47,069 nt of DNA. Origin: Candidatus Omnitrophota bacterium. GTDB lineage: Bacteria; Ratteibacteria; UBA8468; MWAK01. Positions 4,410 to 45,701 of this stretch are shown in pieces. Each line of letters starts with the position of its first letter. Position 1 is the first letter of the stretch. Below the pieces are notes generated by a model. It saw only the letters and a list, made by a program, of their open reading frames with translations, was not told the DNA's origin and did no database searches. Made by a program: the position numbers and the translations under genes. The DNA lies in the NCBI GenBank assembly GCA_043797665.1, contig JAZDPL010000047.1, forward strand, positions 1 through 47,069. The letters are read 5' to 3'.

Positions 4410-4497
4410 GTCATTCTGAACGCGGGTATCCTTACCGTTGAATCGGTAAGGGAGTGAAGAATCTGAAAGATAGATTCTTCGTTTCACTCAGAATGAC
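4410..4497. repeat. GTCATTCTGA-type (CGTC-tagged) REP doublet interrupted by a 30-bp element
   Basis: GTCATTCTGAACG...AGTGAAGAATCT / AGATTCTTCG...CTCAGAATGAC. Confidence 0.9.
4423..4452 (+). mobile_element. 30-bp micro-element, type A
   Basis: CGGGTA-TCCTTACCG-TTGAAT-CGGTAAGGG. Confidence 0.8.
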
Positions 4498-4527
4498 AGA
4501 AAAGGTAGTTTAGATTTTTATTCATAT

Positions 4528-5493
4528 ATGGTTTTAAGGGTTTCAGACCTGTACCTCTCTTCAGTCGAAGAAGGGAAAGAAAGAGAGATTTTACGCGGGG
4601 TGGATGTGAATATCGAGCCTGCAGAAACAATAGGATTGGTCGGCGAATCCGGAGCCGGTAAGTCTATGCTTACCCTTGCGATTATGGGACTTTTGCCTCC
4701 AACCGTAAAGGTTAAAAAGGGCCGGATTGAATTTTTAGGGAGAGAAATTCTGGATAAGCCGGAGGAACAGGCTGATATCCGGGGCCGCCGGATAGGGATT
4801 GTTTTTCAGGATCCCACCGCTTCCCTGGACCCTCTTTACCGGGTAGGCTGCCAGGTCGCTGAAGCTATGAAAGGCAAGGGAAGGAAAGGATGGAGAGAAA
4901 GAGTCCGTGACCTCTTTAGCCGGGTAGAATTTAAGGAACCGGAAACAATTCTTTACCGTTATCCGCATCAGCTTTCCGGCGGTGAGAAACAACGAATTAT
5001 GATTGCGATTGCCCTCAGTCAGGAACCCGCGTTACTTTTAGCGGACGAGCCGACCGCCTCCCTTGATATCAGAACCGGTCAAGGGATTATTTCCCTTTTG
5101 GGCCGGATTCAGGAAGAGATGCGTCTGGCGATACTCTTTATCAGTCATAATCTGCCGTTGGTGTCCCAGGTAGCCAGAAGGATTGCGATAATGTATGCGG
5201 GTCAAATTCTGGAGACCGGGTTTACCCGGGACGTTATGGAACATCCTTTACATCCTTACACCCGATTACTCTATGCCGCTCTTCCGGACCCCAAAAAGAA
5301 AGGGAGTCCTTTGGCTGCCGTACCCGGTTATCCGGAAAAAGGAAGAGTTTACCCCTGCATGCACCAGGCAGGGGTGGGGGCAGACATTTGTGTTTTTTAC
5401 CACCGGTGTCCGGAAAGAGATATTCGCTGTCAAGAGGGAATCCCTTCTCTGACCGAATTGACCCCGGGTCATTGGACCGCCTGTTTGAGATGA
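4528..5493 (+). CDS. Oligopeptide/dipeptide ABC transporter ATP-binding protein (OppD/DppD-like)
   Basis: GESGAGKS, LSGGEKQR, ADEPT, HPLHPYT, C-terminal Cys motif. Confidence 0.92.
   Translation: MVLRVSDLYLSSVEEGKEREILRGVDVNIEPAETIGLVGESGAGKSMLTLAIMGLLPPTVKVKKGRIEFLGREILDKPEEQADIRGRRIGIVFQDPTASLDPLYRVGCQVAEAMKGKGRKGWRERVRDLFSRVEFKEPETILYRYPHQLSGGEKQRIMIAIALSQEPALLLADEPTASLDIRTGQGIISLLGRIQEEMRLAILFISHNLPLVSQVARRIAIMYAGQILETGFTRDVMEHPLHPYTRLLYAALPDPKKKGSPLAAVPGYPEKGRVYPCMHQAGVGADICVFYHRCPERDIRCQEGIPSLTELTPGHWTACLR
5353..5382 (-). mobile_element. 30-bp micro-element, type B (degenerate), in frame in oppD
   Basis: CCCTGCATGCACCAGGCAGGGGTGGGGGCA encodes PCMHQAGVGA; compare PCLLHAGAGP in coaX. 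Confidence 0.65.
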
Positions 5494-7220
5494 AGATTAG
5501 AATAGAAGGGGTAGTAACCGCCGGCTTGTTCTTTCTTTTGAGTGTATTTACTTTCCGGGGTGCCTACGACTATACGCTTGCCAGACTTCTGGCGGTGGAT
5601 TTTATTGTTTGTATTTTAGCGCTCTTTTTTCTTATCCGGCGTCAGTCCTTTAGATTGCCTCTTCCGGTTCTTTTATCTTTTACCGCGTTCGTTTTCTCCA
5701 TTACCGTTGCCGTTGCTTTTTCTACGTTTCCGGCTGCCACCCAACGGGAATTGCCCCATGTCCTGATATATTTCTTCCTCTTTTTGCTTGGCAGCCAGAT
5801 GTCTTTTTCTTCTTTTTCGTTGACCGCCTGGTTTCTTGCCGTACTCACTCTCTGTGGGATTGCTTTAAAGGATTATTTTGGCCGCGGTACGATAGTTACA
5901 CCGTTGGGAAACAAGAATTTCTTTGCGGGCTATCTGCTTTTGATTCTACCTTTGGCAATAACTCTTTTCGGCGCCGGTTTATTGAATTGGAAGCCGGCAA
6001 ACAAGAGACATAAGACTGGAGGCACGGGCAAAAAATCCCCTTTTGCTGCTTCGCAACGACGGATTATTCTTTCCCGAGTGCTTACAGTCCTTTTATTCTG
6101 TATCGTTATCCTTTTTGTTGTTTTGCTCTTTCTGGCTGATTCTCAGGCATCCCAGGCCGGTCTGTTCTTTTCTCTTTTATTCCTGGCGGTTGTCTGGTTT
6201 ATCGATTTTCTCTTACCCCGCTTTAGTCTAAAAATACGCCGGGTTTTTTGGGTAATTGCCATTCTGGGTTTGCTTACCGCAGGTCTGTTAGGAGTTAAAA
6301 AGGGGGTTCCCTATATCCGCCAGAACGTTCGTTTTCCACTCTGGCAGGGAAGCGCGGCGATGCTCAAAGAGAAGCCCTGGTCCGGATTCGGACCGGGTAC
6401 TTTTTTAGCGGGTTTTCAACGGTTCAGGCCAAACAGTTACTATAACTTCGATGTTGCCGCACCCCTTTCTGACCACAGTCATAGTGAGTACCTGGAGTTA
6501 GGTTCGGAATGCGGTGTTCCGGTTTTGCTGACCTTTGTAATTTTCTTAGGGGTTATCTTCTGGATGTCATTCAAGCGGAGGAGACTGGATTACAGCCGCT
6601 GGCCCTTTAGCATGGGATTACTTGGCGGCGTCGCAGCCATTTTGTTTGATGGATTTTTTTCCACAAACTTGCGCACTTTTTCGGTGGTATCCCTTTTCTG
6701 GTTCCTCTTAGGGATTTGTGTGTCGGAACCGTCGCTGGATGTCGGAAGGGTTAAAGGTGGTGAAGGAAAGAAGATAAATGCAAAAGTGAGGAAGGCAGGA
6801 ATAAGCGAGGCGGTTTGGATAACCGTAATTTTAGGCGGTATCTTTTCGGGAGCGGTTCTCTTTCAGGAAATAAGGGGACAGGTATACTATAAAAGAGGCA
6901 TCGCCGCACGGGAAGCAGAGAACTGGTCCGAGGCCATCTTAAATTACCGGAAAGCGGTGCAGATGGACCCGGCTAACCTGCAGGCTTTTTATAAAATGGC
7001 TTTTGTTTATGCGAGCGCCGGTGATGCCAAAAACGCCATCAGGGTTTACCACGATATTTTACGCGTCAGTCCCAACTTTGCCAAGACATATTACAACTTG
7101 GCCCTTCTTTCTATCCGGTTGGGTAATAAGGAAGATGCCCTTAACTACCTGATTCTGAGTCTCAAATATAACTCTTACGATACAGACAGTCAGAATTTAC
7201 TCAAGTTTATTGGAGAATAG
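5490..7220 (+). CDS. O-antigen ligase (Wzy_C)-family membrane protein with C-terminal TPRs
   Basis: Many TM helices, GNKNFFAGYL, R..LW...PWSGFGPGTF, HSHSEYLE, TPR tail; ATGA overlap with oppD stop. Confidence 0.85.
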   Translation: MKIRIEGVVTAGLFFLLSVFTFRGAYDYTLARLLAVDFIVCILALFFLIRRQSFRLPLPVLLSFTAFVFSITVAVAFSTFPAATQRELPHVLIYFFLFLLGSQMSFSSFSLTAWFLAVLTLCGIALKDYFGRGTIVTPLGNKNFFAGYLLLILPLAITLFGAGLLNWKPANKRHKTGGTGKKSPFAASQRRIILSRVLTVLLFCIVILFVVLLFLADSQASQAGLFFSLLFLAVVWFIDFLLPRFSLKIRRVFWVIAILGLLTAGLLGVKKGVPYIRQNVRFPLWQGSAAMLKEKPWSGFGPGTFLAGFQRFRPNSYYNFDVAAPLSDHSHSEYLELGSECGVPVLLTFVIFLGVIFWMSFKRRRLDYSRWPFSMGLLGGVAAILFDGFFSTNLRTFSVVSLFWFLLGICVSEPSLDVGRVKGGEGKKINAKVRKAGISEAVWITVILGGIFSGAVLFQEIRGQVYYKRGIAAREAENWSEAILNYRKAVQMDPANLQAFYKMAFVYASAGDAKNAIRVYHDILRVSPNFAKTYYNLALLSIRLGNKEDALNYLILSLKYNSYDTDSQNLLKFIGE

Positions 7221-7223
7221 AAT

Positions 7224-7472
7224 ATGGGAAAAAAGTGTGCCGTTTGCGGGAAGAGCAGAAAACCGGGAATGCTGCTGAGCCATTCTCACCACCGGACCAA
7301 GAAATTTTTTGGAGCCAATCTTCAGAAGGTCCGGACAAAAGATGGTTCTGTTCTGGTTTGCTCCCGGTGTCTGAAGAGCGGGAAAGTAATTAAGAGGCCC
7401 TTAAACAAAAGGGGGTTAGGGGCAACTTCCTTAGCTACCCCTATGGTTAACCGCTCTCCCGTAAACTCTTGA
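7224..7472 (+). CDS. rpmB: 50S ribosomal protein L28 (Zn-binding form) with C-terminal extension
   Basis: CAVCGK..SHSHHRTKKFF.ANLQKV..VCSRCLKSG. Confidence 0.92.
   Translation: MGKKCAVCGKSRKPGMLLSHSHHRTKKFFGANLQKVRTKDGSVLVCSRCLKSGKVIKRPLNKRGLGATSLATPMVNRSPVNS
7417..7443 (-). repeat. GGGG-CAAC-family hairpin just 3' of recJ (possible terminator)
   Basis: Minus strand TAGGGGTAGCT-AAGGA-AGTTGCCCCTA pairs with two G-U. Confidence 0.5.
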
Positions 7473-9132
7473 TTGTTAATTCAATCTGGGATAGGCCTTC
7501 GTTAACGGCGAGTTTTGAGGTATAGGCAGCGTCAACCTGTAAACCAGCCGGCAGCGCAGTCTGAAGTCTACTTAACCCGAACCCGATCGCCTGCCGGAAA
7601 GTCTTTTCATCGCGCAGCCATAATTTCAGATGCTTGTTGCCCACTATCTGGCTATATCGTTGAACCTCTAAGTTTAAACTGGCTAAAATCGGCGCCGGGT
7701 TGTCCTGACCGTATGGTGCCAGCATCTCCATTTCCCGGACCAGTTCCGGGGTAACTTCCGCCAATGGCAATAAAACCTCAATTCTAACTTTTTCCTTCAG
7801 GGTCTCCGGCGTTATCCTTTTCTCCGCAAAATTCATAAGCGATTTCCTGAAGGCTTCCATATTTTGGAGGTCGAGAGTAACCCCGACCGCCTTATGATGA
7901 CCGCCATAGTTTATTAAAAGAGAACGGGATGCCTGGACCGCTTCAAAGAGGTTAAATCCCGGTATGGAACGACCGCTTCCTTTTGCGGCGTGCCCTGTAA
8001 GGGTAAAGACAATAGTGGGGCGGTTATAGCGTTCGGCAATCTTTCCGGCTACGATGCCTAATATTCCCTGGTGCCAGTCCTCTTTTCCCAGAATGATTAT
8101 CGGACATTCGTTCAGATTACCTTCTTCAATTTCCCGGCAGGCTTCGGTGAGAACTTTTTTTTCTATGCGCTGGCGTTCGCGGTTGTTTCGTTCTAATCTT
8201 TCCGCAATGGACATTCTTTCGCTGTCGTCCTCGGTAAGGAAAATCTGGAGAGCCAAATCAGCGTCTGAGATTCGTCCGGCGGCGTTGATACGTGGACCAA
8301 AGATGTAACTTATCGCGTAAGTATCAACACTTTCCGGTCGGAGACCCGCCTGGGCAGACAATTGACGAAAGGCCGGTCGGTTAAGAGCCTGCAACGTTTT
8401 TAAACCCAAAAAAGAAAGGGTCCGGCTTTCGCCCAAAAGAGGTACCCGGTCGGCAATAGTACCGGTCGCCACCAGGTCCAGGTATTCCTGTATTGACTCA
8501 TCATCGGAAGCAATTGCCCGGACCAGTTCAAATGCTACACCTACTCCGGAAAGAGACTTCATCTCTTCTTTCCATCCTAAATGAGGATTTACCAGAGGGA
8601 TTTCTTCCGGCAGGTCGTCACCGGGCAGGTGGTGGTCGGTTACGATTAAATCTAATCCGATTTCCCGGGCTTTTTTTACGACACTTCCCGCGCTGGTTCC
8701 GCAGTCCACCGTAATTACCAGTTTTATTCCCTGTTTTTTTGCCTCAATCAGCGGATTAAGATGGAGACCGTATCCTTCTTCAATCCGGCGGGGCAGGTAG
8801 GTAAAGACCGGGCACCCTTTTTTACGTAAAAAGAGGGTAAGAAGCGCGGTTGCAGTTACTCCGTCGGCATCGTAGTCACCGTAGATTAAGACCGGTTCTT
8901 TTTCTTTCCGGGCTTTTTTGATTCTTATTACCGCTTCTTCCATCCCGGGCAGGTCAAAGGGGTCGTTCAAGGTTTTCCAGTCCGGCTGGAGGAAAGAACG
9001 TCCGTTCCGGACTTCGTTAATGCCCCGGTTGATTAACAGTGCGGCTAAAAAGGGGGAGACCGATAATTTTTTTGCCAGTTCTAATTTGAGGTCTTCATCC
9101 TGAGCGATAAATTCCCATACCTTATTGTCCAT
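7447..9132 (-). CDS. recJ: ssDNA-specific exonuclease RecJ
   Basis: GDYDADG, TVDCG, TDHH, GPRINAAGR, GSGRS, GGH motifs. Confidence 0.97.
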   Translation of the reverse strand: MDNKVWEFIAQDEDLKLELAKKLSVSPFLAALLINRGINEVRNGRSFLQPDWKTLNDPFDLPGMEEAVIRIKKARKEKEPVLIYGDYDADGVTATALLTLFLRKKGCPVFTYLPRRIEEGYGLHLNPLIEAKKQGIKLVITVDCGTSAGSVVKKAREIGLDLIVTDHHLPGDDLPEEIPLVNPHLGWKEEMKSLSGVGVAFELVRAIASDDESIQEYLDLVATGTIADRVPLLGESRTLSFLGLKTLQALNRPAFRQLSAQAGLRPESVDTYAISYIFGPRINAAGRISDADLALQIFLTEDDSERMSIAERLERNNRERQRIEKKVLTEACREIEEGNLNECPIIILGKEDWHQGILGIVAGKIAERYNRPTIVFTLTGHAAKGSGRSIPGFNLFEAVQASRSLLINYGGHHKAVGVTLDLQNMEAFRKSLMNFAEKRITPETLKEKVRIEVLLPLAEVTPELVREMEMLAPYGQDNPAPILASLNLEVQRYSQIVGNKHLKLWLRDEKTFRQAIGFGLSRLQTALPAGLQVDAAYTSKLAVNEGLSQIELTIKSLRESG

Positions 9133-9358
9133 CGAAAATCTTCTTCAATTCCTCCGAAGTGATTTCAGAAGGGTTGACTTCTTCGAAAGCGGTCTCTCCG
9201 ATTACCAGGGCGGGAATACGTCCGACGTTGTGATAAGCCATTTCCATCAGTCCTTCAGTCGTCTCAGTATCATAATAGGTGAAAGGAAGGGAAAGAGCGT
9301 CCAGTTTTCTTTTCCACCCTTCACAAAGGGAACAGCCTTTTTTCCCGAACAAAATCAT
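9122..9358 (-). CDS. Small thioredoxin/glutaredoxin-like protein
   Basis: CSLC motif near N terminus, IPALVI cis-Pro region. Confidence 0.75.
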   Translation of the reverse strand: MILFGKKGCSLCEGWKRKLDALSLPFTYYDTETTEGLMEMAYHNVGRIPALVIGETAFEEVNPSEITSEELKKIFDGQ

Positions 9359-9373
9359 TTTTTATCCACCCTT

Positions 9374-9826
9374 TTATTTTCTTTCGTATCTAATGCCGGA
9401 TTCGGCTAACATCTTCCGGGCAAATTCGTCCGGATATTCATGGTGCGTTACGATGCGGGCAATTTTACAGTTGATGAGCATCTTAACGCAGGTGATGCAG
9501 GGCTGACAGGTAACGTACATCGTACTTCCCGCGATGGGGACACCGTAAAGAGCCGCCTGGATGACGGCATTCTGTTCCGCATGTAGACCCCGGCACAACT
9601 CCTGACGTTCCCCGGAAGGGATTTTCATCTTTTCCCGGAGACAGCCTGAGTCTAGACAATGCTTTAGATTGCAGGGAGCGCCGTTGTATCCGGTGGTCAA
9701 TATCCGTTTATCGCCGACCAGTACCGCTCCGACCCGGCGCCGGCGGCAGGTGGACCGGGTAGCCACCAGAGAAGCGATTTCCAGAAAATAGCTGTCCCAA
9801 TCCGGCCGTTTCTTTTTCTCCATCAT
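9374..9826 (-). CDS. dCMP/cytidine deaminase family (ComEB-like)
   Basis: [27 protein letters not shown]. Confidence 0.93.
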
Positions 9827-9844
9827 CTTAGGGTTGTCCCTTTA
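9824..9844 (-). repeat. GGG(A)CAACCC mini-hairpin before start codon
   Basis: Minus strand TAAAGGGACAACCCTAAGATG. Confidence 0.65.
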
Positions 9845-9876
9845 TCTTAACCCAATTTGCATTTTTTCGTCAACCA

Positions 9877-9906
9877 TTGACAAAAATATTGTTTGCAGGG
9901 CATAAT
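9877..9906 (+). promoter_or_regulatory. Putative sigma70 promoter for PqqD-like operon
   Basis: TTGACA-N18-CATAAT. Confidence 0.6.
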
Positions 9907-9932
9907 ATAGGGGTTGCCGGATAAAGAACCTA

Positions 9933-10319
9933 ATGTGGAAAAAGAGGGCCCTTTCCTGGGAGGAGGTTCTGGGTGCGCAGGTTATGGTGAACGAAGCCGC
10001 CCGCACCGAAGAACGGAAAAACGAGTTGCTCATTGTTATCCCGAGAAGGAAAACTTTCTGGATAAATGTGCTCTCTTTTTTTCTGGTGGTTCCCCGGGAA
10101 AAGAAAATGGTCCTTGATGAATTGGGTGCCGAAGTTTACCGTTCCTGTCAGAAGGGTCTGGCTGTTTCTGAAATCATTCAGGGTTTTGAAAAACAGCATA
10201 ACCTTTCCCAGGATTACAGCCGGCAGAGTGTTTTATTGTATCTGAAGAACCTTGCCCAGCGGGGTATCATCGGTTTTGTGGTTAAGGGGGTTGCTCCCGA
10301 AGGACGCAAAGATGGCTAA
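9933..10319 (+). CDS. PqqD/RRE-like protein
   Basis: LDELGAEVYRSC...VSEII..F.......Q..V.LYL..L...GII pattern typical of the PqqD-family winged helix. Confidence 0.7.
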   Translation: MWKKRALSWEEVLGAQVMVNEAARTEERKNELLIVIPRRKTFWINVLSFFLVVPREKKMVLDELGAEVYRSCQKGLAVSEIIQGFEKQHNLSQDYSRQSVLLYLKNLAQRGIIGFVVKGVAPEGRKDG

Positions 10320-10947
10320 CCAGGTCAGCAAGCAGGTGGTTCTTCCCAAAAAAGAGGCGTTCAAGATGAGCGTGCGCAATATCCGGATTCGTTTTGGAAG
10401 GGCAATTATCGTTTCCTCAAGTGTTTTCCTCGGCGTGGCATTTTTGAGTTCCATCTTTACCGGCAACCTTATTAATAATGTGTTGATTAAAAATGGTCCG
10501 GAGGTGATTCGGATGAATCTGTTAGCCACCGCTTCCGATTCCCTTGCCCGCAGTATCTGGCTGGTAAGTCTTTCCCTGCTGGTATGTATCGTCGGTATTA
10601 CCAACGCTATGTTAATGTCGGTAAACGAGCGAAGCCGGGAAATCGGCACGATGAAATGTTTGGGTGCTCTCAACCGGTTCATTATGGAAATCTTTTTGAT
10701 TGAATCGGCGCTCCAGGGCCTCATCGGTTCCATCGCCGGCAGTTTGATCGGTGCGTTATCCATCATCTTTACGTATTTTTTCAAATACGGAGGGTTAATC
10801 TTTTCTTATATCCCTTATTTGTCATTGTTTAAATTCCTATTTGCCTCGGTTCTTTTAGGAACCGCTATCGCCATTATCGGTGCTATTTACCCGACCTATC
10901 TTTCCGCCCGGTTAGAACCGGCGGAAGCGATCAGAAGAGAGGTATAA
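10312..10947 (+). CDS. FtsX/MacB-like ABC permease with minimal periplasmic domain
   Basis: GITNAMLMSVNERSREIGTMKCLGA, FLIES, PAEAIR; ATG 10312 overlaps the upstream stop. Confidence 0.88.
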   Translation: MANQVSKQVVLPKKEAFKMSVRNIRIRFGRAIIVSSSVFLGVAFLSSIFTGNLINNVLIKNGPEVIRMNLLATASDSLARSIWLVSLSLLVCIVGITNAMLMSVNERSREIGTMKCLGALNRFIMEIFLIESALQGLIGSIAGSLIGALSIIFTYFFKYGGLIFSYIPYLSLFKFLFASVLLGTAIAIIGAIYPTYLSARLEPAEAIRREV

Positions 10948-10969
10948 ATAGCGGATTATAGGGGGAAGT

Positions 10970-11710
10970 ATGCCAAAAGAAGTAGTGGTACGAACGATTG
11001 GCGTTGAAAAAAACTATATGCTGGGCCGTGTCGAACTTAAGGTTCTCAGGGGTGTTGACCTGGAAGTGAACCGGGGAGAGTACATCTCTATTATGGGCCC
11101 TTCCGGTTCCGGTAAGACCACTTTTTTCAATATGATCGGCGGTCTTGATAAACCCAGTAGCGGCCGGGTTTACATTGACGAAGTGGATATTGCCCAGTTG
11201 GATGCCTACGAACTTGCCTGGCTGCGCTGTCGGAAGATAGGCTATATTTTTCAGACCTTTAATCTCATTCCGGTGATGACCGCCCTGGAAAACGTAACCC
11301 TTCCGATGGTCTTTGCCGGTACCGGACATGATGAATCGGTGGAAAAAGGAATTAAACTTCTGGAGAAGGTGGGTCTGGGTGACCGTATTCAGCATAAACC
11401 GTTTGAACTTTCCGGCGGGCAGCAACAGCGGGTAGCGATTGCCCGCGCTTTTGCCAATGACCCGGCCATCATCCTGGCTGACGAACCTACCGGGAACCTT
11501 GACCTGAAAACCGGCAAGGATATTATCCGGTTGCTGAAAGAGATGAATTCCAATCAGGGTGTTTCGGTGGTTACCGCAACCCACGACTTGAAGATGCTGG
11601 ACGTTTCCGACCGGGTGGTCTGGATTCGGGACGGTCAGATTGAGCGGATTGAGGAGCGTGCCAATCTGGACATTAAATTGGGTGCGGTAGAAGGTGAAGA
11701 ATCCGGTTAA
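10970..11710 (+). CDS. ABC transporter ATP-binding protein (LolD/MacB-like)
   Basis: [26 protein letters not shown]. Confidence 0.95.
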
Positions 11711-11715
11711 TAATC

Positions 11716-11730: not shown

Positions 11731-11737
11731 TACCTCC

Positions 11738-12530: not shown

Positions 12531-12589
12531 CCCTATCCCATCCCTTACCGATTCAACGGTAAGGGGACCCGTAAGGGATAGGGGACCCG
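12531..12589 (-). mobile_element. 30-bp element type A (outer), split by a second copy
   Basis: CCCTATCCCAT + inner + TAAGGGATAGGGGACCCG; matches the 40425-40454 copy. Confidence 0.8.
12542..12571 (-). mobile_element. 30-bp element type A (inner)
   Basis: Reverse complement CGGGTC-CCCTTACCG-TTGAAT-CGGTAAGGG; 28/30 identical to 4423-4452. Confidence 0.85.
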
Positions 12590-12688
12590 TATTCCGGCGG
12601 ATAGTAAGCCGGAATCCATTATCTGGTTCATTGGATTCCCGCTAAAAGCATGCGGGAATGACAAGAAATTAAATGCGTTTGTATTAGT

Positions 12689-15164: not shown

Positions 15165-15165
15165 T

Positions 15166-19521: not shown

Positions 19522-19605
19522 GCCGGAGTGGTGGAAATGGCAGACGCGCTGCGTTCAGGGCGCAGTGGGGGTAACCCCATGGGGGTTCAAATCCCCCCTT
19601 CGGCA
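19522..19605 (+). tRNA. tRNA-Leu (anticodon CAG), CCA not encoded
   Basis: Acceptor GCCGGAG/CTTCGGC, anticodon arm CTGCG-TTCAGGG-CGCAG, long variable arm, GGGGG-TTCAAAT-CCCCC. Confidence 0.95.
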
Positions 19606-19779
19606 CATCCTGACAGGGGGATTTGAAGGGAGCGAAGTCAGGAATTGCGACGAATAGGCAGCAATTCCAGCGGGTGGCCGACCCGGAGCGTAGTGGAGCG
19701 GAGGGCGCCAAATCCCCTTTCCCATCCGAGGGAAAGGGAACCCGCCCCTTCGGCACATCCTGATAAAAGGAGATTTGAA
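19588..19779 (+). repeat. Direct duplication of tRNA 3' end with ~95-bp spacer
   Basis: CAAATCCCCCCTTCGGCACATCCTGA (19588-19613) recurs at 19709-19763, split by a 30-bp element; each copy is followed by GG(G/A)GATTTGAA. Confidence 0.85.
19715..19744 (-). mobile_element. 30-bp element type A in the tRNA duplicate
   Basis: Reverse complement CGGGTT-CCCTTTCCC-TCGGAT-GGGAAAGGG. Confidence 0.85.
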
Positions 19780-31031: not shown

Positions 31032-32207
31032 ATGGTAGTGGCAGAAGCACCGGGTCGGGTGGAGGTTTTGGGAAACCATACCGACTATAATGAAGGTCTT
31101 GTCCTTCTTTCTACGGTAGGATTAAAGACTGCGGTTTCCGGACAAAAGGAAGACGGGAATAAGGTTTACCTCCTTTCCCGTAACCTGGATGCGACCGCAG
31201 AATTTGAAATAGACCATCTTCAGAAGGACCCTGCTTCTCCCTGGGCTGATTACCCGAAAGGGGTAATCCAGCAATTACAAAAGAAGGGGTATAAACTTAC
31301 CGGATTCCGGGCGGAAATATTCAGTACCATCCCTTTTGGAGTGGGCTTAAGCAGTTCGGCTGCTTTAGAGTTATCGGTGGCTCTTTTTTTGGAAGCACTT
31401 TTTGGATTTGAGATTTCCCGGCGTACCCTGGTTGAGTTGTGTCAGCGAGCGGAAAACGAATTCGTTGGCGTCGCCTGCGGGATATTGGACCAGTTTTCCA
31501 GTGCTTTTGGCCGCAAACAATCCCTGGTCTTCCTTGACTGTCGGGACCTCTCTTTTGAAACAATACCTCTTCCGGAAACCGTTTCACTGGTAATCTGTGA
31601 TTCCGGAACCCGACGTAATCTGGTTTCCTCTGATTATAACCGGCGCCGGACCGAATGCCAGTCTGCCCGGGACTTCTTTGCCGGTAAAAAGTCCGGAATT
31701 AAGGCTTTGCGGGATGTAACTACGGATGATTTTCAACGTTATGGTTCCGGAATTGAAGAACCAGCGCTCCGAAAACGAGCGGAGCACGTTATCTTTGAAA
31801 ATGAAAGGGTGGAAGCCGGCCGGGAGGCGTTACGTGAGGGTAGACTTGAGGAGTTGGGAAGTTTGATGTTTATGTCTCATCAGAGTTCCCGGACTCTTTT
31901 CGAAAACAGCCTGCCGGAGATTGATTTTCTGGTAGAGAAGGCATATTCCCTGTCCGGTATTATCGGTGCCAAACTCTCCGGTGCCGGTTGGGGCGGTGCC
32001 ACGGTCAATCTGGTATACGCAGATAAAGCCGAAGCGTTTTCCGGAGCATTAAAGGAGGCTTACCGGGAAAAGTTCAGTCACCAGGCCAAAACCTATATCT
32101 GTTCTATTCCTGACGGCGCCAGGATAATAAATGACACACAGTGCCCTTTCCAATCCTATGGAAAGGGAACCCGTATTCTGAGCGATAGCGAAGAATCTAA
32201 TGAATAA
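31032..32207 (+). CDS. galK: Galactokinase
   Basis: APGRVEVLGNHTDYN, GLSSSAA, CGILDQ, GAKLSGAGWGG. Confidence 0.93.
   Translation: MVVAEAPGRVEVLGNHTDYNEGLVLLSTVGLKTAVSGQKEDGNKVYLLSRNLDATAEFEIDHLQKDPASPWADYPKGVIQQLQKKGYKLTGFRAEIFSTIPFGVGLSSSAALELSVALFLEALFGFEISRRTLVELCQRAENEFVGVACGILDQFSSAFGRKQSLVFLDCRDLSFETIPLPETVSLVICDSGTRRNLVSSDYNRRRTECQSARDFFAGKKSGIKALRDVTTDDFQRYGSGIEEPALRKRAEHVIFENERVEAGREALREGRLEELGSLMFMSHQSSRTLFENSLPEIDFLVEKAYSLSGIIGAKLSGAGWGGATVNLVYADKAEAFSGALKEAYREKFSHQAKTYICSIPDGARIINDTQCPFQSYGKGTRILSDSEESNE
32142..32198. repeat. Half GTCATTCTGA REP with 30-bp type A element (32144-32173), translated as the galK tail
   Basis: TG[CCCTTTCCAATCCTATGGAAAGGGAACCCG]TATTCTGAGCGATAGCGAAGAATCT. 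Confidence 0.85.
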
Positions 32208-38056: not shown

Positions 38057-39553
38057 ATGACTAAGATACTGATTGATAGTGTGGGGTTTGAAACCCGGGC
38101 TGCGATTATCGCCAAGGGAAGAATGGAACATTTTGAGATTGAGCGTAAAGAAAATCTCAGTCTGGCCGGCAATATCTATAAAGGCAGGGTGGTCCGGGTA
38201 CTGCCGGCTTTAAATGCCGCTTTTTTAAACATCGGAGAGAGCCGGGAAGTATTTCTTCCTTTGACCGACATTTATGAATTTGCACCTTATCAGGAGGAGA
38301 TGGCTGAAGAGGTAACAAAAAAAGGTACCCATTCGTCCCGGCTTAAGGTTAAACCGAAAGAGGATGTTCTGGTTCAGGTGGTTAAGAATGCTATCGGGAC
38401 CAAAGCACCGAAAGTGACCGCGAATCATATTTCATTAGCCGGACACCTGCTGGTCCTGTTGCCTCAGGATGAAATAAGAAGAGCAATTTCCCGCCGTATC
38501 ACTTCGTCAACCGAAAGGGAACGTCTTTTAACTATCGTGAGCAGTTTCCTGCCGCCGGAATTCGGTTTTATTATCAGGACCTCGGCGGAAAGATGTTCGG
38601 AACGAGTGCTCAGGGCAGAAGCGGAAAGATTGCGGAAGACCTGGGAGGAGATAAGGTCTGAGTTTCAGAAGAAGGAGATACCAGCCTGTCTCTACGTTGA
38701 ACTCCCGCTTCCCCTCCGGATATTACGCGATTATTTCACCCCGGAGATAAGCGAGGTACTGGTCGATTCGCCGGAGATTCTCCGAAACAGCCGGCGTTAT
38801 CTGGTTCAGTTTGGTATTGACGGCAAGAAAGTACAGTTACATCAGGAGAAAGTGCCTCTCTTTACAAAATTAGGGGTGGATGATACGATTGAAAAGGCTT
38901 TAAACCGGACCGTTCCTCTTAAAGGGGGAGGGTATCTCGTTATCGAAGAGACAGAGGCTTTGTGTGCTGTTGACGTCAACAGCGGCCGTACCGGTGGTGA
39001 GGACTACCGGAGTATGATTTTGCGTACCAACCTTCTGGCAGCGGAAGAGATTGCCTGGCAGTTGCGGCTCCGTAATTTAGGAGGTCTGCTCGTGGTCGAT
39101 TTTATCGATATGGACCGCGGTGATGACCGCCGGAAAGTCTATCAGGCGTTCGAGAAAGCGCTGGAACCGGATAAAGCGAGGATTAAGGTTCTGAAAGTCT
39201 CCCGTTTAGGTTTGGTTGAAATGACCCGGCAGCGTACCCGTGAAAGTTTGCGCGATTATTTAGTTGACGATTGTCCTGCCTGCCGGGGTCAGGGAAAGAT
39301 TCTTTCTGCCGAAACAACGGTTGCCCAGATGCGCCGGAGTTTACAGATTGAATTTTCGGGCCGGCGTCGTTTCCTGGGACGATACTATCCCCGGAAGAAG
39401 ACGGACGTAAGGGTTTCCCCCCAGTTTGCCCAGTATCTTAAAGAAAATTTTAACCGGTTCTTTCCCGAACGTTTTTATCAGAATGGGATAAACCTGATAC
39501 CCGATCCTAATTTAGGTCCGAACCAGTTTAAAATAGAAGGCGAAAATCAATGA
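38057..39553 (+). CDS. Ribonuclease E/G family
   Basis: GNIYKGRV, VQVVK..IGTKAP, IIRTSA, DVNSG, LRNLGG..VVDFIDM, GLVEMTRQR, CPAC. Confidence 0.95.
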   Translation: MTKILIDSVGFETRAAIIAKGRMEHFEIERKENLSLAGNIYKGRVVRVLPALNAAFLNIGESREVFLPLTDIYEFAPYQEEMAEEVTKKGTHSSRLKVKPKEDVLVQVVKNAIGTKAPKVTANHISLAGHLLVLLPQDEIRRAISRRITSSTERERLLTIVSSFLPPEFGFIIRTSAERCSERVLRAEAERLRKTWEEIRSEFQKKEIPACLYVELPLPLRILRDYFTPEISEVLVDSPEILRNSRRYLVQFGIDGKKVQLHQEKVPLFTKLGVDDTIEKALNRTVPLKGGGYLVIEETEALCAVDVNSGRTGGEDYRSMILRTNLLAAEEIAWQLRLRNLGGLLVVDFIDMDRGDDRRKVYQAFEKALEPDKARIKVLKVSRLGLVEMTRQRTRESLRDYLVDDCPACRGQGKILSAETTVAQMRRSLQIEFSGRRRFLGRYYPRKKTDVRVSPQFAQYLKENFNRFFPERFYQNGINLIPDPNLGPNQFKIEGENQ

Positions 39554-40341
39554 CGAAGATTCAGAAACACTGCCGTCTGCAGAAAGGAGTGAATAGAATT
39601 CTTACCTCCGGCAGGATGGGATTATCATTTCTGGAATTGAAGATTATCATCCTGGAGGACGGTGAAAAATACCGGGAGAGGCCGAAAGACAAAGAAGGGG
39701 TTCTGGTGGTTCTTTCAGGAAGATGCCGGCTGGATGCACCATCTTTTTCCGGAGAATTGGGTTCACGCAAAGACGTTTTCAGCGGACCACCTGCCGGTGC
39801 TTACTTAGGTTCCGGTTCGCCTTTCATTCTTACCGGCCAGGACCGGGTGGAGGTAGCGCTCTTCCAGAGTCAGACGTCTTTTTCCCTGCCTTCCTATATC
39901 GTGAAAGAAGAGACGTTAAAATCGGAAATACGGGGTGGTACTTCCTTTACGCGGCAGGTGACCGACATAGTGGGAATCAACAGTCCGGCAGTCCGTCTAA
40001 TCGTCGGTGAGACCATCAACGAGGCAGGCAACTGGAGTAGTTATCCCTCCCATAAGCATGACCAGGACCGTATGCCGGAAGAGAGTTTACTGGAAGAGGT
40101 ATATCTCTTTAGGTTTAAACCCTCAGCCGGTTTTGGTCTGATGCGTATCTATACCGAAGACGGCAGTTTGGACAAACCGCTCTTGCTCCGTCACAACGAT
40201 TTGGTATCAATTCCCAAAGGATACCATCCGGTTGCAGCAGCGCCTGGCTACCATCTGTATTATCTCTGGGCTCTGGCCGGACCAAAGCGGGTAATGAAGA
40301 TTTATGAAGACCCGGAACACAGCTGGGTTAATCGGAAATAA
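39550..40341 (+). CDS. iolB: 5-deoxy-glucuronate isomerase (KduI/IolB family)
   Basis: GNWSSYPSHKHD, LEEVY, PKGYHPV.AAPGY..YYLW. Confidence 0.9.
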   Translation: MTKIQKHCRLQKGVNRILTSGRMGLSFLELKIIILEDGEKYRERPKDKEGVLVVLSGRCRLDAPSFSGELGSRKDVFSGPPAGAYLGSGSPFILTGQDRVEVALFQSQTSFSLPSYIVKEETLKSEIRGGTSFTRQVTDIVGINSPAVRLIVGETINEAGNWSSYPSHKHDQDRMPEESLLEEVYLFRFKPSAGFGLMRIYTEDGSLDKPLLLRHNDLVSIPKGYHPVAAAPGYHLYYLWALAGPKRVMKIYEDPEHSWVNRK

Positions 40342-40349
40342 CGTCCTTT

Positions 40350-40456
40350 GTCATCCTGAACCCCTGAATGCAATTATCAGGGGTGAAGGATCTAAGGGAT
40401 AGATTCTTCGCTGCGCTCAGAATACGGGTTTCCTATCTCTTGAATGGGATAGGGCA
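40350..40456. repeat. GTCATCCTGA REP doublet with two inserts
   Basis: Hairpin ACCCCTGAATGCAATTATCAGGGGT (40360-40384) in the left arm; 30-bp type A element in the right-arm GAATGAC. Confidence 0.85.
40425..40454 (+). mobile_element. 30-bp element type A
   Basis: CGGGTT-TCCTATCTC-TTGAAT-GGGATAGGG. Confidence 0.82.
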
Positions 40457-40474
40457 GCGAATTCTTCGAATATT

Positions 40475-41458
40475 ATGGAAAGACGATTAAGTACCAAGAA
40501 GGTAGGAGAGATACTTAAGGCTATCAAAGATAAGCGAATTCTGGTGGTGGGTGATTTGATGCTGGACAGGTATCTTTTTGGAAAAGTGGAGCGGATTTCT
40601 CCGGAAGCCCCGGTCCCAATCTTCCTTGCGGAAAAAGAAGAAATGCGGGTTGGGGGAGCGGGTAACGTTGCCAGTAATATTAAAGGATTGGGCGGACGGA
40701 GTACCGTCATTAGTTTTCTGGGAGATGATACGGAAGGTTCCCGTTTGAAACGGCTCCTGAAAAAACAGGGAGTAGAATTATTGACCATATCCGTCCCTTC
40801 GTTGCCTACGATTGCCAAAACACGGGTTATGGCGCGTAACCAGCAGTTGCTTCGTATTGACCAGGAAGATACCAGCCAGTTTTTCTCTGGCGAGGTCACC
40901 CAAGGATTCGCCACCTTAATAAAAGAAGCGTTGCCGAAGTTTGACGCACTCATTATTTCTGATTACGGGAAAGGGGTCATTAACCGGAGGGTTCTGAACA
41001 TAATTCTTCCGGTCCTCCGTAAAAGCAATAAGATAGTGACCGTTGACCCAAAGGTGGAGAATTTTTTGGAGTACCGGGGTGTGGATTCGTTAACGCCCAA
41101 TTTGGACGAAGCCAGTGCGGGAATAGGGTCAATAAAACCCAAATCCCAGAAAGATGTGGAAATTCTGGGCTTTCAAATCATTAAAAAACTGGAAGCAAAG
41201 AGTCTTTTGATTACCCAGGGCGCAGAGGGAATGACGCTCTTTCAGACAGGATACGCCGCCCATATTCCCACCGCCGCCCGGGAGGTTTTTGACGTCACCG
41301 GAGCCGGTGACACGGTAATTGCCGCCTTCACCTTGGCCCTTACCGCAGGTTTCTCTCTTTTGGATTCTGCAGAATTTGCAAATTTAGCCGCCGGTATTGT
41401 AATAAGTAAATTAGGTACCGCCACAGTCACTCCCCGGGAAATTTTAAAACAAATGTAA
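40475..41458 (+). CDS. D-glycero-beta-D-manno-heptose-7-phosphate kinase (RfaE/HldE domain I)
   Basis: GDLMLDRY, RISPEAPVP, GGAGNVA, SDYGKG, VDPK, TPN, DVTGAGDT. Confidence 0.93.
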   Translation: MERRLSTKKVGEILKAIKDKRILVVGDLMLDRYLFGKVERISPEAPVPIFLAEKEEMRVGGAGNVASNIKGLGGRSTVISFLGDDTEGSRLKRLLKKQGVELLTISVPSLPTIAKTRVMARNQQLLRIDQEDTSQFFSGEVTQGFATLIKEALPKFDALIISDYGKGVINRRVLNIILPVLRKSNKIVTVDPKVENFLEYRGVDSLTPNLDEASAGIGSIKPKSQKDVEILGFQIIKKLEAKSLLITQGAEGMTLFQTGYAAHIPTAAREVFDVTGAGDTVIAAFTLALTAGFSLLDSAEFANLAAGIVISKLGTATVTPREILKQM

Positions 41459-41482
41459 AATAATGACAACAACATACGTAAT

Positions 41483-41565
41483 GTCATACCCGCGGATTTT
41501 TAGCGGGTATCCAGACTTCCGCATAATTACTTCCTGGATTCCCGATAGAAACATTCGGGAATGAC
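41483..41565. repeat. GTCATTCC-type REP doublet
   Basis: GTCATACCCGC...GCGGGTATCCA / TGGATTCCCGA...TCGGGAATGAC. Confidence 0.88.
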
Positions 41566-41591
41566 ATACTATTTTATATTGAACTTATCCG

Positions 41592-42797
41592 ATGTGTGCA
41601 AAATTTAGCTGGCAGGAAGAAAAACCCGGCGGTTCCAAATGGACCTATGACGGCAGTAGTTCCATGCGCGAAAAACCGGACGCCAAGATAAAGCGAAAGG
41701 TATGGCTTCGGCGTTCTCTGATTCTGGCGGGCGTGGTTTTGTTAGCCGGGGTCACTATTGCGGGATCAGTTTTCCGGATACACAGGCGAGTAAAATCCAG
41801 CGGAGTGGTGGAACCTCTCCGTTACGATTACGTCAGAACGCCGACCAGCGGTACCATAGAACTCTTGCCTTTTGAGGAAGGTCAGTATGTAAAGAAGGAC
41901 CAGTCTCTGGCAGTAATTTTACCCGATGACCCTACTTTTTTCAGTGACATAGAAAACAGGGTTTTTGATCTCACCGGTATCCAGAAAGAATGCGAACGAA
42001 TCAATGAACGTATCGGAATTCTGACCGTCGAGTTGGAGCAATTAGAAATAGAACAAGAACTTTTTAAGAAAGATTTTTCCGAGGTTGAGGTTGGAAAGCA
42101 GAAGATTCAGGCTACAGAAGCGGAATACAATCAAAGCGTCAGGTCTGAAGAACGCGCCCGTAAACTGTATGAACAGGAAGCCATCAGTCAGGTTGAATAT
42201 GATAACACCGTAACCAAAAAAGAGGTGGCTCGGGCAAATCTGGCTATTGCCAGAGCCCAGTTGGAAAGTTCACAAAACAGCCGGTATCTTAAAGAGCAAC
42301 AACTGGGAAAAGATATCGCCGCGAAGCAAAAAGAGATTATTATGGAAAATATCTCCCTGGTCCAGAAGAGAACAGAATCACAGCAGACCAGTGGAATTAT
42401 TAAGAGGGTTCGCGGACGTTCGGGAAGACTGGAACTCTGCGCTCTGGAAGACAGCCAGATAGTCCGCCGGGAGAAATTACCCGGGGATCATCTGGAGACA
42501 GGAGAACTTATCTGTCTTCTCTCCCGGGGTGAAGAGCGGCGAATCCTGGTTAAGGTTACCCCCAGGAATGCGGTCCGGCTAAAGTTGGGCCAAAGAGTTC
42601 TTATCTATTCTAATATCTTTTATCACTGGAAATATGGTGTTGGCGAAGGCCGGATTTTTGAGATCGGGACATACGCCCGAACTACAGATGGACAAGGGAT
42701 AGCTAATTATATCCCGGTTAAGATAGCGGTTGAAAAGGCCCCATTTCCTCTGCCTTTTGGGACCACCGTAAGTGTAGTGCTCCTTACCCATGAGTGA
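41592..42797 (+). CDS. HlyD-family membrane fusion protein
   Basis: N-terminal TM, SGVVEP, lipoyl-like EGQYVKKDQ, long coiled coil, beta-barrel end; start may be 41664. Confidence 0.8.
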   Translation: MCAKFSWQEEKPGGSKWTYDGSSSMREKPDAKIKRKVWLRRSLILAGVVLLAGVTIAGSVFRIHRRVKSSGVVEPLRYDYVRTPTSGTIELLPFEEGQYVKKDQSLAVILPDDPTFFSDIENRVFDLTGIQKECERINERIGILTVELEQLEIEQELFKKDFSEVEVGKQKIQATEAEYNQSVRSEERARKLYEQEAISQVEYDNTVTKKEVARANLAIARAQLESSQNSRYLKEQQLGKDIAAKQKEIIMENISLVQKRTESQQTSGIIKRVRGRSGRLELCALEDSQIVRREKLPGDHLETGELICLLSRGEERRILVKVTPRNAVRLKLGQRVLIYSNIFYHWKYGVGEGRIFEIGTYARTTDGQGIANYIPVKIAVEKAPFPLPFGTTVSVVLLTHE

Positions 42798-45045
42798 GCC
42801 AGCCAGTAGTCAACAATATCCAGAGCCAATAGTCCTTGCCTCGGTTGATTTCATCCCGCGGGTTATTCTGGAAAGAATTAAGAATACCGCCATTGCATCC
42901 GAACCGATACTTCTGGCGGTTGAGGCTGATTTGGACGGCCGGGGAAACATTATGCCCATCTGGCTGCTGGCTACCGACCGACATATCGTGACCGTTCCGG
43001 CTGTTCCCGAGTATTCTCTCTGGGGTCCGTATACTTACCAGACGATTACTGATTTTGACCTCCGCACCACCGTGGGTTCCACTTCCTTACGGATATTTGT
43101 TAATTCCACACCCGTGGAACTGGTCCGCTTCAGCAACGAACACCGGGAACGGTTCCAGAGGGTTATTCACCAGTTAAAACGGCTTAAAGAAGGACAGCCT
43201 GTAGAAAGAGAAGCGGTCTTTGTGCCGGACCCGCAATACTGTCAGAAGTGTGGTTTGATTCTACCGGCTCCCGGAGCTCCCTGTCCCAAGTGTATCCAGC
43301 GTAGGGCTGCTTTTACCCGGATGTTTTCCATGCTGTTCCCTTACCGCTGGATAATGTCAGGGCTTTCTGTTCTGATGGTGGTTGGCATTGTTCTGGATAT
43401 GCTGCCTCCCTTTTTGACCCGCATCCTGGTGGATGATGTTTTAACCACCCATCAGCACGCCGATTGGCTTCTTGTCCTGGTTCTGGCTTTAGCCGGGGCA
43501 TCTCTTTTGAGAAGAGGCATTGATATCGTAATCAACTGGCTGGCACCCAAGGTAGGGACCGGCGTAACCGACGATATCCGGAAACGCCTCTTCCAAAAAC
43601 TACAGGAGATGTCGATTGCTTATTACGACCGGGCACAGGTGGGCAGTCTGATGAGCCGCATTATCAATGACGTTGAGATACTACACGGATTCGTCATTCA
43701 GGTAACCCAGGGCTTTCTGGTCAACGTCTTTCTGGTGATTGCCATCGGGATAATGCTCTTCTGGCTCAATGCAAAATTAGCCTTTTTTGTTCTAATTCCC
43801 ATTCCGGTCGTTTTATTGGGAACCATCTTCTTCTGGAAACGGGTCTATCCGAACTATTATAAATACTGGGACAGCAACTCCAAATTAGGCGGGATGCTTT
43901 ACAGTGTTCTTTCCGGTATCCGTTTGGTGAAGGTTTTCGGACAGGAACAGAGAGAAACCGAGCGTTTCCGCAAATCATCCGAGTATGTTAAGACCAGCCG
44001 GCAGTTGGTTGACACCCGGGTGGGAACGTTTTCACCTTTAATGGCTTTTGTGTTCGGTTTGGGTGGGCTGATTATCTGGTTTGTGGGCGGCAAGGACGTG
44101 CTGTCCGGAACCGGAATATCCCTGGGCACTCTGATGGCTTTTTTGGGCTATATCGGTATGTTCTATGCTCCCCTGACCAGTCTGGCGATGTTCTCCAACT
44201 GGGTAACCCAGTTTGCCACCGCCAGCCAGCGCATCTTTGAAATTCTGGATACCCCTTCCGATATGGTAACCAACCCCGATGCGCTCCCCTGTCCGGACAT
44301 CCGGGGTGACATTGAACTGGATAATGTCTGGTTCGGTTATGACCGGTACAAACCGGTGATTAAAGGAATATCGCTTAAAATCTCCGCGGGTGAAAAAATA
44401 GGCATTGTGGGCCGGAGCGGTTCCGGTAAGACCACCCTGGTCAATCTTATCTGCCGTTTCTATGATGCCCAGAGGGGTGCGGTTAATATTGACGGCACCG
44501 ACGTTACCCGTTATCGCCGGTCAGAAATGCTCCGTCATATCGGTCTGGTCCTTCAGGAACCTTTTCTCTTCCGTGGCCCGGTAAAAGACAATATCGCTTA
44601 CGGAAATCCCGGGGCAACGTTGGACGAGATAATCAATGCGGCCTATGCCGCTAACTGTCACGGGTTTATTATGAGGCTTGCCGAAGGATATGATACCCGT
44701 TTGGGTGAAGGTGGGGCAGGGCTTTCCGGCGGTGAGAAACAACGGGTTTCCATCGCCCGGGCTTTTTTGTGTAACCCTAAGGTTATTATTCTCGACGAGG
44801 CGACCTCCAGCGTTGATGCCGAAAGCGAACAGGAAATTCAGAGGGCGTTGGAAATCATTGGTCAGGGACGAACCGTAATTTCAATTGCGCACCGGCTTTC
44901 CACGCTTAAGAACGCCGACCGCATTTACGTAATTGAGGACGGGAAATTGATGGAGTTTGGTACGCACGAAGAATTATCGCAGAAGAAAGGGGTTTACGCC
45001 CGTCTGGTAATGATTCAGACCCAGTTAGCCAGACTGGAATTGTAG
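42790..45045 (+). CDS. ABC exporter with N-terminal extension and CxxC-x10-CxxC zinc ribbon
   Basis: ~170-aa extra N-domain ending CQKCGLILPAPGAPCPKC, TMD, GRSGSGKT, LSGGEKQR, DEATS. Confidence 0.9.
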   Translation: MSEPASSQQYPEPIVLASVDFIPRVILERIKNTAIASEPILLAVEADLDGRGNIMPIWLLATDRHIVTVPAVPEYSLWGPYTYQTITDFDLRTTVGSTSLRIFVNSTPVELVRFSNEHRERFQRVIHQLKRLKEGQPVEREAVFVPDPQYCQKCGLILPAPGAPCPKCIQRRAAFTRMFSMLFPYRWIMSGLSVLMVVGIVLDMLPPFLTRILVDDVLTTHQHADWLLVLVLALAGASLLRRGIDIVINWLAPKVGTGVTDDIRKRLFQKLQEMSIAYYDRAQVGSLMSRIINDVEILHGFVIQVTQGFLVNVFLVIAIGIMLFWLNAKLAFFVLIPIPVVLLGTIFFWKRVYPNYYKYWDSNSKLGGMLYSVLSGIRLVKVFGQEQRETERFRKSSEYVKTSRQLVDTRVGTFSPLMAFVFGLGGLIIWFVGGKDVLSGTGISLGTLMAFLGYIGMFYAPLTSLAMFSNWVTQFATASQRIFEILDTPSDMVTNPDALPCPDIRGDIELDNVWFGYDRYKPVIKGISLKISAGEKIGIVGRSGSGKTTLVNLICRFYDAQRGAVNIDGTDVTRYRRSEMLRHIGLVLQEPFLFRGPVKDNIAYGNPGATLDEIINAAYAANCHGFIMRLAEGYDTRLGEGGAGLSGGEKQRVSIARAFLCNPKVIILDEATSSVDAESEQEIQRALEIIGQGRTVISIAHRLSTLKNADRIYVIEDGKLMEFGTHEELSQKKGVYARLVMIQTQLARLEL

Positions 45046-45055
45046 CGGTCGCATT

Positions 45056-45628
45056 ATGGAAGACGGAACTGGAAAAAATAAGAAAGATTTCGCGGGCTTG
45101 GAGGGTTTAGGACTGACCTTCCTTATCCCTGAAAAAACCGAAATTATCTTTGGTTTCGATAATTTCTTGTACGCAACGGTAAAACCCGATAACGGAGGTG
45201 ACCCCAGGGTTTACCGCGGCATATTTGCGGTTTTATGTTTTCCGGTTATCTCTCCGCACCAGTTTGTTTCCCTGCGGTACTTTGACGAAAAAGGACTGGA
45301 GAGAGAGGTAGGCATAATCAAAGACCCGTCCGATTTTCCTCCGGAAGCCAGAAAATTACTGGCCGGCAGTCTGGCAAAGTACTACTTTGAGTTTGAGGTA
45401 ATCCGTGTTCTGGCGGTTACCCATTCTTACGGTCTTTTAATGTTCGACGTGCTAACTGACCACGGTCCCCGGCAATTTGAGATGCGCTGGAAAGGTGACC
45501 GGGCCCAGGATTACGGTGAAAAAGGGAAGGTACTCTTTGACGTTTTTGATTGCCGCTATATCATCCGGGACCTTGATAAACTGCCCCTCTTAGACCGGGA
45601 ACTCTTCACCCGTTACATCTACTGGTAG
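45056..45628 (+). CDS. DUF1854 domain protein
   Basis: CFPVISP..FVSL, EVGII, YYF, VLTDHGPRQF, DVFDCRYII.D..KL. Confidence 0.8.
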   Translation: MEDGTGKNKKDFAGLEGLGLTFLIPEKTEIIFGFDNFLYATVKPDNGGDPRVYRGIFAVLCFPVISPHQFVSLRYFDEKGLEREVGIIKDPSDFPPEARKLLAGSLAKYYFEFEVIRVLAVTHSYGLLMFDVLTDHGPRQFEMRWKGDRAQDYGEKGKVLFDVFDCRYIIRDLDKLPLLDRELFTRYIYW

Positions 45629-45635
45629 AAATTGA

Positions 45636-45701
45636 TTCCCTTCTTTGAAAAAGAGGCGGGTTCCCTACCAGTTGAATCTGGTAGGGGTGTAGGGGAGATT
45701 T
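45636..45701. repeat. CCCCT/AAGAGG-type palindrome interrupted by a 30-bp type A element (45657-45686)
   Basis: CCCTTCTTTGAAAAAGAGG[CGGGTT-CCCTACCAG-TTGAAT-CTGGTAGGG]GTGTAGGGGAGATTT; compare 37871-37906. Confidence 0.85.

Follow-up and report, generated by a model that had tools for sequence, protein, structure and literature searches.

The small dispersed repeats (SDRs) of the Nostocaceae, SDR1-8, reportedly nest within themselves, show compensatory changes in their stems and have no known mover. In the passages that cite the original description (Elhai 2008, cited in PMC4390886 and PMC5861425), they figure as very small, nested, mobile repeats, and one of these (PMC5861425) states that they are not found outside the Nostocaceae. 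Here we describe a family of gene-less DNA units, each a few tens of bases long, that populates a 47,069-nt stretch of the Candidatus Omnitrophota bacterium genome (contig JAZDPL010000047.1 of assembly GCA_043797665.1; hereinafter, the window, i.e., the whole stretch that was analysed). The family is real, mobile and lineage-restricted, and it inserts in an unusual manner, whereby a target G-R step (R, purine) becomes R-unit-G, so that the genome gains one base fewer than the visible length.

Judged by description, the SDRs are the closest known kind of element: like the unit, they are said in the citing passages to be very small, gene-less, dispersed and lineage-restricted and to insert at precise steps inside other repeats. 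The features by which we recognize the SDR type recur in the unit, namely, a length of a few tens of bases, presence in multiple dispersed copies, compensatory changes in the stem, and precise insertion into other repeats and into the unit itself, with empty orthologous sites. The two differ in lineage, and the likeness is one of description, not of compared sequences or junctions. To our knowledge, neither the G-R to R...G rule nor the mirror tail described below is known for the SDRs, and the single Nostoc match to our pattern (L050) has no paired stem. The original prediction, made from the letters of the window, recognized no described family; our literature searches found no account of this family or of its junction (the full SDR text and supplements may bear on the novelty), but the kind of element is known from the Nostocaceae (Elhai 2008, in citing passages).

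All forms of the unit share one layout: a C, a four-base tail, one free base (N6) and a hairpin that ends in G, with a stem of 7-9 bp. The loops, of 3-7 bases, vary in sequence and occur in either orientation, being inverted in the 25-base form, so the fixed loop consensus TNGRAT that had been proposed does not hold. The seven predicted copies are all present in the window, six of them intact and one interrupted, with the arms and hosts as originally named (three REP families, the loop of another copy and a tRNA 3' duplicate). Together with two empty targets and a tRNA gene, they are as follows.

4423..4452, plus strand: 30-base unit of subfamily A; target-derived base G at 4422; host, a GTCATTCTGA-type hairpin repeat at about 4410-4498.
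12531..12589, minus strand: outer 30-base unit with an interrupted loop; base A at 12590; host, the tail of a GTCATTCC-type repeat.
12542..12571, minus strand: inner 30-base unit nested in the loop of the outer copy, where the GA step of the loop now reads A...G; base A at 12572.
19522..19606, plus strand: tRNA-Leu(CAG), with its 3' end duplicated downstream.
19715..19744, minus strand: 30-base unit inside the tRNA 3'-end duplicate (19710-19763); base G at 19745.
32144..32173, minus strand: 30-base unit at the GAAT-GA-CA hotspot of a repeat tail.
40425..40454, plus strand: 30-base unit at the GAAT-GA-CA hotspot; base A at 40424; one G-T pair.
45657..45686, plus strand: 30-base unit in a purine-run hairpin repeat; base G at 45656.
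41011..41030, minus strand: empty target (GG) in a PfkB-family gene, filled with a 25-base unit in the ortholog from a genome of the same genus, adding 8 residues.
39732..39752, minus strand: empty target in a KduI-family gene, likewise filled with a 25-base unit in that ortholog, adding 8 residues.

The hairpin is well supported by covariation. Among 25 distinct variants, 225 of 225 stem cells are paired, as the original prediction had it, with two-sided changes at five of the nine pairs; the covariation score is 0.506, compared to 0.112 for shuffled sets (0 of 500) and at most 0.088 for slid registers, in a set whose selection pattern itself holds the outer four pairs constant. A covariance model whose training set included all six intact window copies finds them at E <= 3.9e-9, five of the six scoring 47-52 bits, and its next-best scores (E >= 0.018) are the reverse strands of the same copies. 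Two further structural readings were rejected: GNA-triloops in the loop or tail fail for the 25-base form and for subfamilies B and C, and there is no signal of covariation between position 7 and a target A at position 30.

Throughout, G000 denotes this genome (86% complete) and G001 the other one of the same genus (70% complete). G000 contains 168 copies in total, compared to 11 in the reversed-genome control; 139 belong to subfamily A (97 of 30 bases, 31 of 25, nine of 31 and two of 28), 21 to subfamily B and eight to subfamily C. The predicted length of exactly 30 bp thus holds for the six uninterrupted window copies and not genome-wide, and even a 30-base copy is a net insertion of 29. As had been anticipated, a pattern search of the genome and its relatives yields further copies: the strict 30-base pattern has 68 matches in G000, 32 in G001, one to three in each of five sister-genus genomes and none in the other 34 of the 41 genomes, and the reversed pattern has none in all 41. 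In the genome collection, a 30-base scan picked up 47 loci, all but five of them in the family, the relatives being Omnitrophota or Ratteibacteria; the five off-family matches (L050, L053, L058, L065 and L072) were rejected as they have no stem, and four of them resemble ketosynthase coding sequence. Metagenomes contributed 97 loci, 80 of them with flanks. The 25-base A form and subfamily B each occur in two of 65 genomes of the phylum, and subfamily C in three of 65, with one of these matches lacking the hairpin. The 30-base pattern has no match in viral contigs, which hold two matches to the 25-base hairpin without the tail and 17 to the B pattern, mostly without the hairpin; plasmids gave no match, and phages only partial ones, at E 8. 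In none of seven sequencing runs does the share of the words exceed 0.10; these runs consist of contigs from relatives that are about 90% identical.

Identical variants recur in independent assemblies, and units of subfamily A are nested three deep at L119:576-660, whereas members of A, B and C lie in one another's loops and tails at G000 C3:4089-4150 and C1:11438-11486. A multi-copy repeat of about 300 bases (G000 C12, C15, C45, C72, C75, C79, C89 and C93; L020 and L026) carries, in some copies, a 30-base or 25-base unit at two fixed sites.

The junction rule emerges from several comparisons. In 76 of 77 near-strict copies, an A or a G directly precedes the unit. When self-nested copies with a known target are excised in silico, with gaps of zero to three bases all permitted, a two-base gap is left in 11 of 11 cases (two of which may be one locus in two strains), GA when the preceding base is A (8) and GG when it is G (3); the outer window copy, for instance, spans 59 nt, that is, 30 + 29. 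At the GAAT-GA-CA hotspot, A precedes the unit and G closes it in all 19 copies, and the empty repeat tails of this type carry GACA in 260 of 303 cases. The empty orthologous sites that the original prediction called for do exist: when 283 sites were queried against the other genome set, 17 gap-free empty alleles were found, with G as the first base in all 17 and a matching R in 13. One further case with T before the unit is a later change, the G being present in L093. In the window, the G001 ortholog of the 19715 site is empty and reads GG; at the 4423 site, the empty paralogous hosts show GA (3), AG (2), AA (4), GG (2) and GC (3) at the two-base step, and in one relative the whole host repeat is missing, with the joint at 4401-4527.

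The rule is equivalent to insertion of the visible unit after R with loss of the target G, so the insertion is not clean, contrary to what had been predicted. The reconstructed target is R-R-B/G-R, and each event takes its R from the target. With every one of the six commonest hairpin variants, both A and G are found as R, which led us to reject a 31-base unit with a donor-carried R. We found neither target duplication nor terminal inverted repeats, and the tail is one-sided, so the predicted picture of a gene-less mobile unit defined by its hairpin and single tail stands; a MITE of the DDE type is ruled out on the same grounds. IS110/IS1111 elements have a core dinucleotide on both sides. An IS110/IS1111 derivative is ruled out by the R...G junction and by the absence of the unit motif from five IS110 loci.

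All seven window copies lie inside another repeat, as had been stated of every copy, but genome-wide a strict 12-mer test assigns at least 100 of 143 copies to repeats, compared to 764 of 3174 (24%) background sites; copies are also present in tRNA tails, unique spacers and genes, some of these genes being unique. Survival outside genes may account for part of this preference. In G000 and 981 kb of G001, the forms of 25, 28 and 31 bases (net 24, 27 and 30) are inside open reading frames (ORFs) in 30 of 64 cases and the 30-base form (net 29) in 8 of 128 (Fisher p 1.1e-10). The G001 orthologs of the PfkB and KduI genes of the window contain exactly eight extra residues each, and a 24-bp insert distinguishes a unique C92 gene from its G001 counterpart. 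Most surviving copies lie in intergenic repeats; genes, too, retain copies, of the forms that add a net 24, 27 or 30 bases.

The three subfamilies have the tails C-GGGT, C-GGGG and C-GAGG and share the G-R target. In each of them, the bases at tail positions 2-5 are a mirror image of the four that end the unit, the tail/end pairs being GGGT/AGGG at 172 sites, GGGG/GGGG at 25 and GAGG/GGAG at nine. Read antiparallel, the mirror tail corresponds to G·G-C, A·A-T and T·A-T, and GGC, AAT and TAT are listed as the purine-motif triads of intrastrand triplex repeats (PMC4666352). In about 206 A-type sites, deviations number 1, 1, 1 and 1 at tail positions 2-5, 0, 0, 1 and 3 in the purine arm and 3, 12, 7 and 0 in the pyrimidine arm. 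Furthermore, N6 avoids Watson-Crick pairing with the first base of the right flank (24 pairs versus 36.8 expected of 210, p 0.002; p 0.005 minus three hotspots; p 0.002 with one site per context), and this flank position has the strongest link among the 24 tested.

These patterns tentatively suggest that a base-triple clasp holds the two ends of the unit together, a possibility to which we assign somewhat less than even weight. Several observations count against it. The covariation amounts to only two events; the strand order, tail-pyrimidine-purine joined by a one-base linker, belongs to no canonical purine-motif class (PMC4666352) and fits class II only for a circular or permuted unit; positions 2-4 have an alternative, Watson-Crick pairing with 7-9; and the changes in the left arm may stem from conversion templated by the host or from deamination. 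Intrastrand triplex repeats share with the unit a mirror purine tract and a hairpin but, from what the same source describes, need at least six triads, whereas the unit has 3-4, with a non-canonical strand order and demonstrable insertion (PMC4666352). A degenerate search of 65 genomes for more mirror subfamilies returned matches at background level and no further subfamily.

On balance, we lean towards reading the unit as a non-autonomous mobile DNA of net 24-30 bases that is recognized as a folded single strand and splits G-R steps. It probably moves as a single-stranded hairpin, mobilized in trans by an enzyme that nicks and joins single strands and is unlinked to the unit in the assemblies searched. 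The unit, i.e., C, tail, N6 and a hairpin of 7-9 bp ending in G, lands at R-R-B/G-R, with the target G-R afterwards reading R...G. The tail would fold into the major groove at the stem foot as reverse-Hoogsteen triples 2·30, 3·29, 4·28 and 5·27, with N6 as the unpaired linker, and the clasp of 3-4 triples would bring the 5' junction beside the 3' junction, such that one active site could serve both; the target G would be lost or moved while docked at the stem foot. Conservative single-strand exchange produces a clean insertion on that strand and, therefore, cannot alone convert G-A to A...G. This leaves two routes: loss of the docked G in the course of the reaction or of its repair, or several transesterifications within one site. 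We know of no transposase described as rearranging two target bases in this manner. A more far-reaching scenario, which appears possible but doubtful, is that the unit represents a superfamily of minimal mobile DNAs with triple-clasped ends, in which new chemistry splits G-R and reverses its bases around the unit, the mover being a class of enzyme, or an enzyme of the host, with no role in mobilizing DNA known so far.

Several results weigh against the reading of the unit as a mobile folded strand that splits G-R. Four of the 17 empty alleles mismatch R (one T/GG, two A/GG from a multi-copy repeat and one A/GC whose site has diverged), and there are no orthologous empty sites for R = A in unique DNA, the evidence for A coming from nested and repeat-hosted copies. 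R is not wholly independent of the variant (mutual information p 0.0007, in a set that includes some double-read strands). Excision scars are absent, with none of 303 tails lacking GA. No replication-strand bias was seen either (51 of 115 in G000, p 0.26; 19 of 39 in G001; the GC skew is weak and the contigs are short), and the gene-strand trend is weak (48 of 78 in G000, p 0.054; 11 of 19 in G001). The ORF calls of the frame test are naive and overcount. Finally, no gene for the mover was found in G000, G001 or the other loci examined; given that these genomes are 86% and 70% complete, its gene may have escaped assembly or been lost, or the mover may be an enzyme of the host.

Nor was an autonomous partner with the same ends, or the enzyme gene flanked by the motif that the original prediction envisaged, detected in G000, 981 kb of G001 or the other loci examined. 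No neighbour gene recurs among 504 flanking ORFs; inspection by eye, without a family scan, of 79 small repeat-flanked ORFs, a search for DUF559 and a comparison of 42 window proteins to Pfam revealed no mover. None of the orphan unit ends among the matches listed leads to one, and the candidate on C36 continues into ordinary genes. Both Xer-like tyrosine recombinase genes of G000 adjoin copies (C17:9819-10846 and C79:58023-59018), an adjacency noticed post hoc and probably due to chance, there being none in G001. Cas1 was not found in G000 or G001, nor does the unit have an Rfam match, which speaks against a CRISPR repeat or spacer.

Among the enzymes that could act in trans, the RAYT (TnpA-REP, a Y1 HUH enzyme) would be parasitized by the unit, the tail serving as a GTAG-like guide and the strand being pasted at a dinucleotide; we consider this unlikely. 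The resemblance is considerable: the sources consulted describe REPs and REPINs as short tails 5' of small hairpins, high in copy number, mostly intergenic and present in-frame in some genes (PMC8266576, PMC3116915, PMC3733652), and the ends of IS200/IS605 elements, as described for IS608, likewise combine a tail at the hairpin foot with no terminal inverted repeats or duplication (PMC3201880, PMC6006769). Moreover, non-canonical base interactions at the hairpin foot are proposed, and held essential, for IS608, whose target resembles its 3' end (PMC3201880), just as the target-left consensus RRBG resembles the 3' end of the unit, and altered guides can redirect RAYT to GA or GT (PMC8266576). 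Both G000 (at C47:11213-11641) and G001 encode a RAYT. However, these genes are flanked by GTAG repeats and not by the unit, whereas REPs and REPINs flank their RAYT; the GTAG or CGTC tag is absent from the hairpin foot of the unit; and a single hairpin takes the place of the REPIN doublet. As far as the cited descriptions go, RAYT cuts at CT or CA, as opposed to the G-R target with its one-base loss. The guide rule predicts a link between N6 and R, which is not seen (p 0.39), and different tails share the same target. Y1 genes occur in 22 of 41 relatives, mostly without the unit. Described RAYT chemistry neither loses nor moves a base, IS200/IS605 insertion is clean and favours the lagging strand, and these elements have coding members, in contrast to the net gain of length minus one, the lack of a detectable bias (with weak skew and short contigs), the single hairpin and the absence of a coding partner seen here. 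The handling of single-stranded DNA by an HUH-type enzyme, which the original prediction put forward, is a possibility that we hold with reservation. No HUH gene flanked by the unit was found, the one-base loss is unlike HUH chemistry as described, and no replication-strand bias was seen.

A nick at the hairpin by an Ssn-type GIY-YIG or other nuclease, followed by copying of the donor hairpin by a repair polymerase that skips one template base, would account for the one-base loss, but this mechanism appears distinctly improbable. G000 has small Ssn-like GIY-YIG genes flanked by two types of GTCATTC repeat (C85:18889-19179, C89:10717-11214 and C36:28897-29124, the last apparently broken), and many copies of the unit lie inside GTCATTC-type repeats, the commonest hosts being similar to the SRM hairpins of Ssn (PMC11893778). 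The unit, however, is not an SRM: it does not flank the Ssn-like genes and is a guest in their repeats. Ssn cuts upstream of its motif and requires the motif sequence (PMC11893778), whereas the unit inserts within the tag as well as into repeats of other families, tRNA tails and genes. Repair should also yield mixed junctions, and the hotspot is uniform (19 of 19); GIY-YIG matches are present in all 21 genomes searched.

Highly unlikely is an RNA copy that is reverse transcribed in trans by the enzyme of a diversity-generating retroelement (DGR) or a group II intron, with template jumps producing the odd junction. Template jumping may add or drop single bases, and both G000 (a DGR-like enzyme beside an accessory-type gene) and G001 encode reverse transcriptases. 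Yet no unit-like sequence surrounds these genes, no reverse transcriptase was found in the copy-bearing, incomplete genomes G003 and G006, there is no clear transcription-strand bias, and the unit ends are precise, with no truncation series. The DGR-like cassette (L388, G000 C50:7709-11332) comprises what we take to be a small accessory-type gene, a template-like repeat and the reverse transcriptase; that of G001 (L389, C204) is a divergent enzyme, about 466 residues long, that weakly matches a maturase domain. The remaining alternative, that the units are not independently mobile but passengers of host repeats, products of gene conversion or assembly artefacts, is scarcely credible: some composites of host and unit did spread jointly, one variant recurring, for instance, in about ten copies of a long repeat, and an identical tandem pair at L129 looks like slippage, but this reading is largely refuted by insertions at unique sites, in genes and tRNA tails with empty orthologs, and is at odds with the many different variants at a single hotspot, the same variants in independent assemblies and the triple nesting at L119.

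The rest of the window consists of ordinary genes, one tRNA-Leu and several hairpin repeat families, the tRNA being the sole Rfam match in the comparison that the original prediction recommended. The tRNA-Leu is followed by an insert of about 100 bases and then by the duplicate of its 3' end (19522-19763); G001 (L001) has the same arrangement, with a 30-base unit at a different position. The GHMP-kinase ORF at 31032-32207 takes its final codons and stop from a repeat and the 30-base unit at 32144. A 29-base hairpin at 8808-8837, with a loosely similar start and a weak model score, is probably a terminator. Elsewhere, in genome G018, a 24-base sequence with no relation to the family is repeated about twenty times, in many cases close to the ends of contigs.

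What is new here is the non-clean junction, the variable length with a frame filter and the three subfamilies with mirror tails; the junction chemistry is unexplained, and no mover has become known for units this small since their first report. The strict junction signature, the three covarying subfamilies and the defined target make a concrete in vitro assay with 30-base oligonucleotides feasible, and the signature can be used for other families of micro-elements. If the chemistry is indeed new, the unit would represent a very compact single-strand integration system. For the bacteria that carry it, the family is also a source of protein indels, as the forms that keep the reading frame lengthen working proteins by 8-10 residues.

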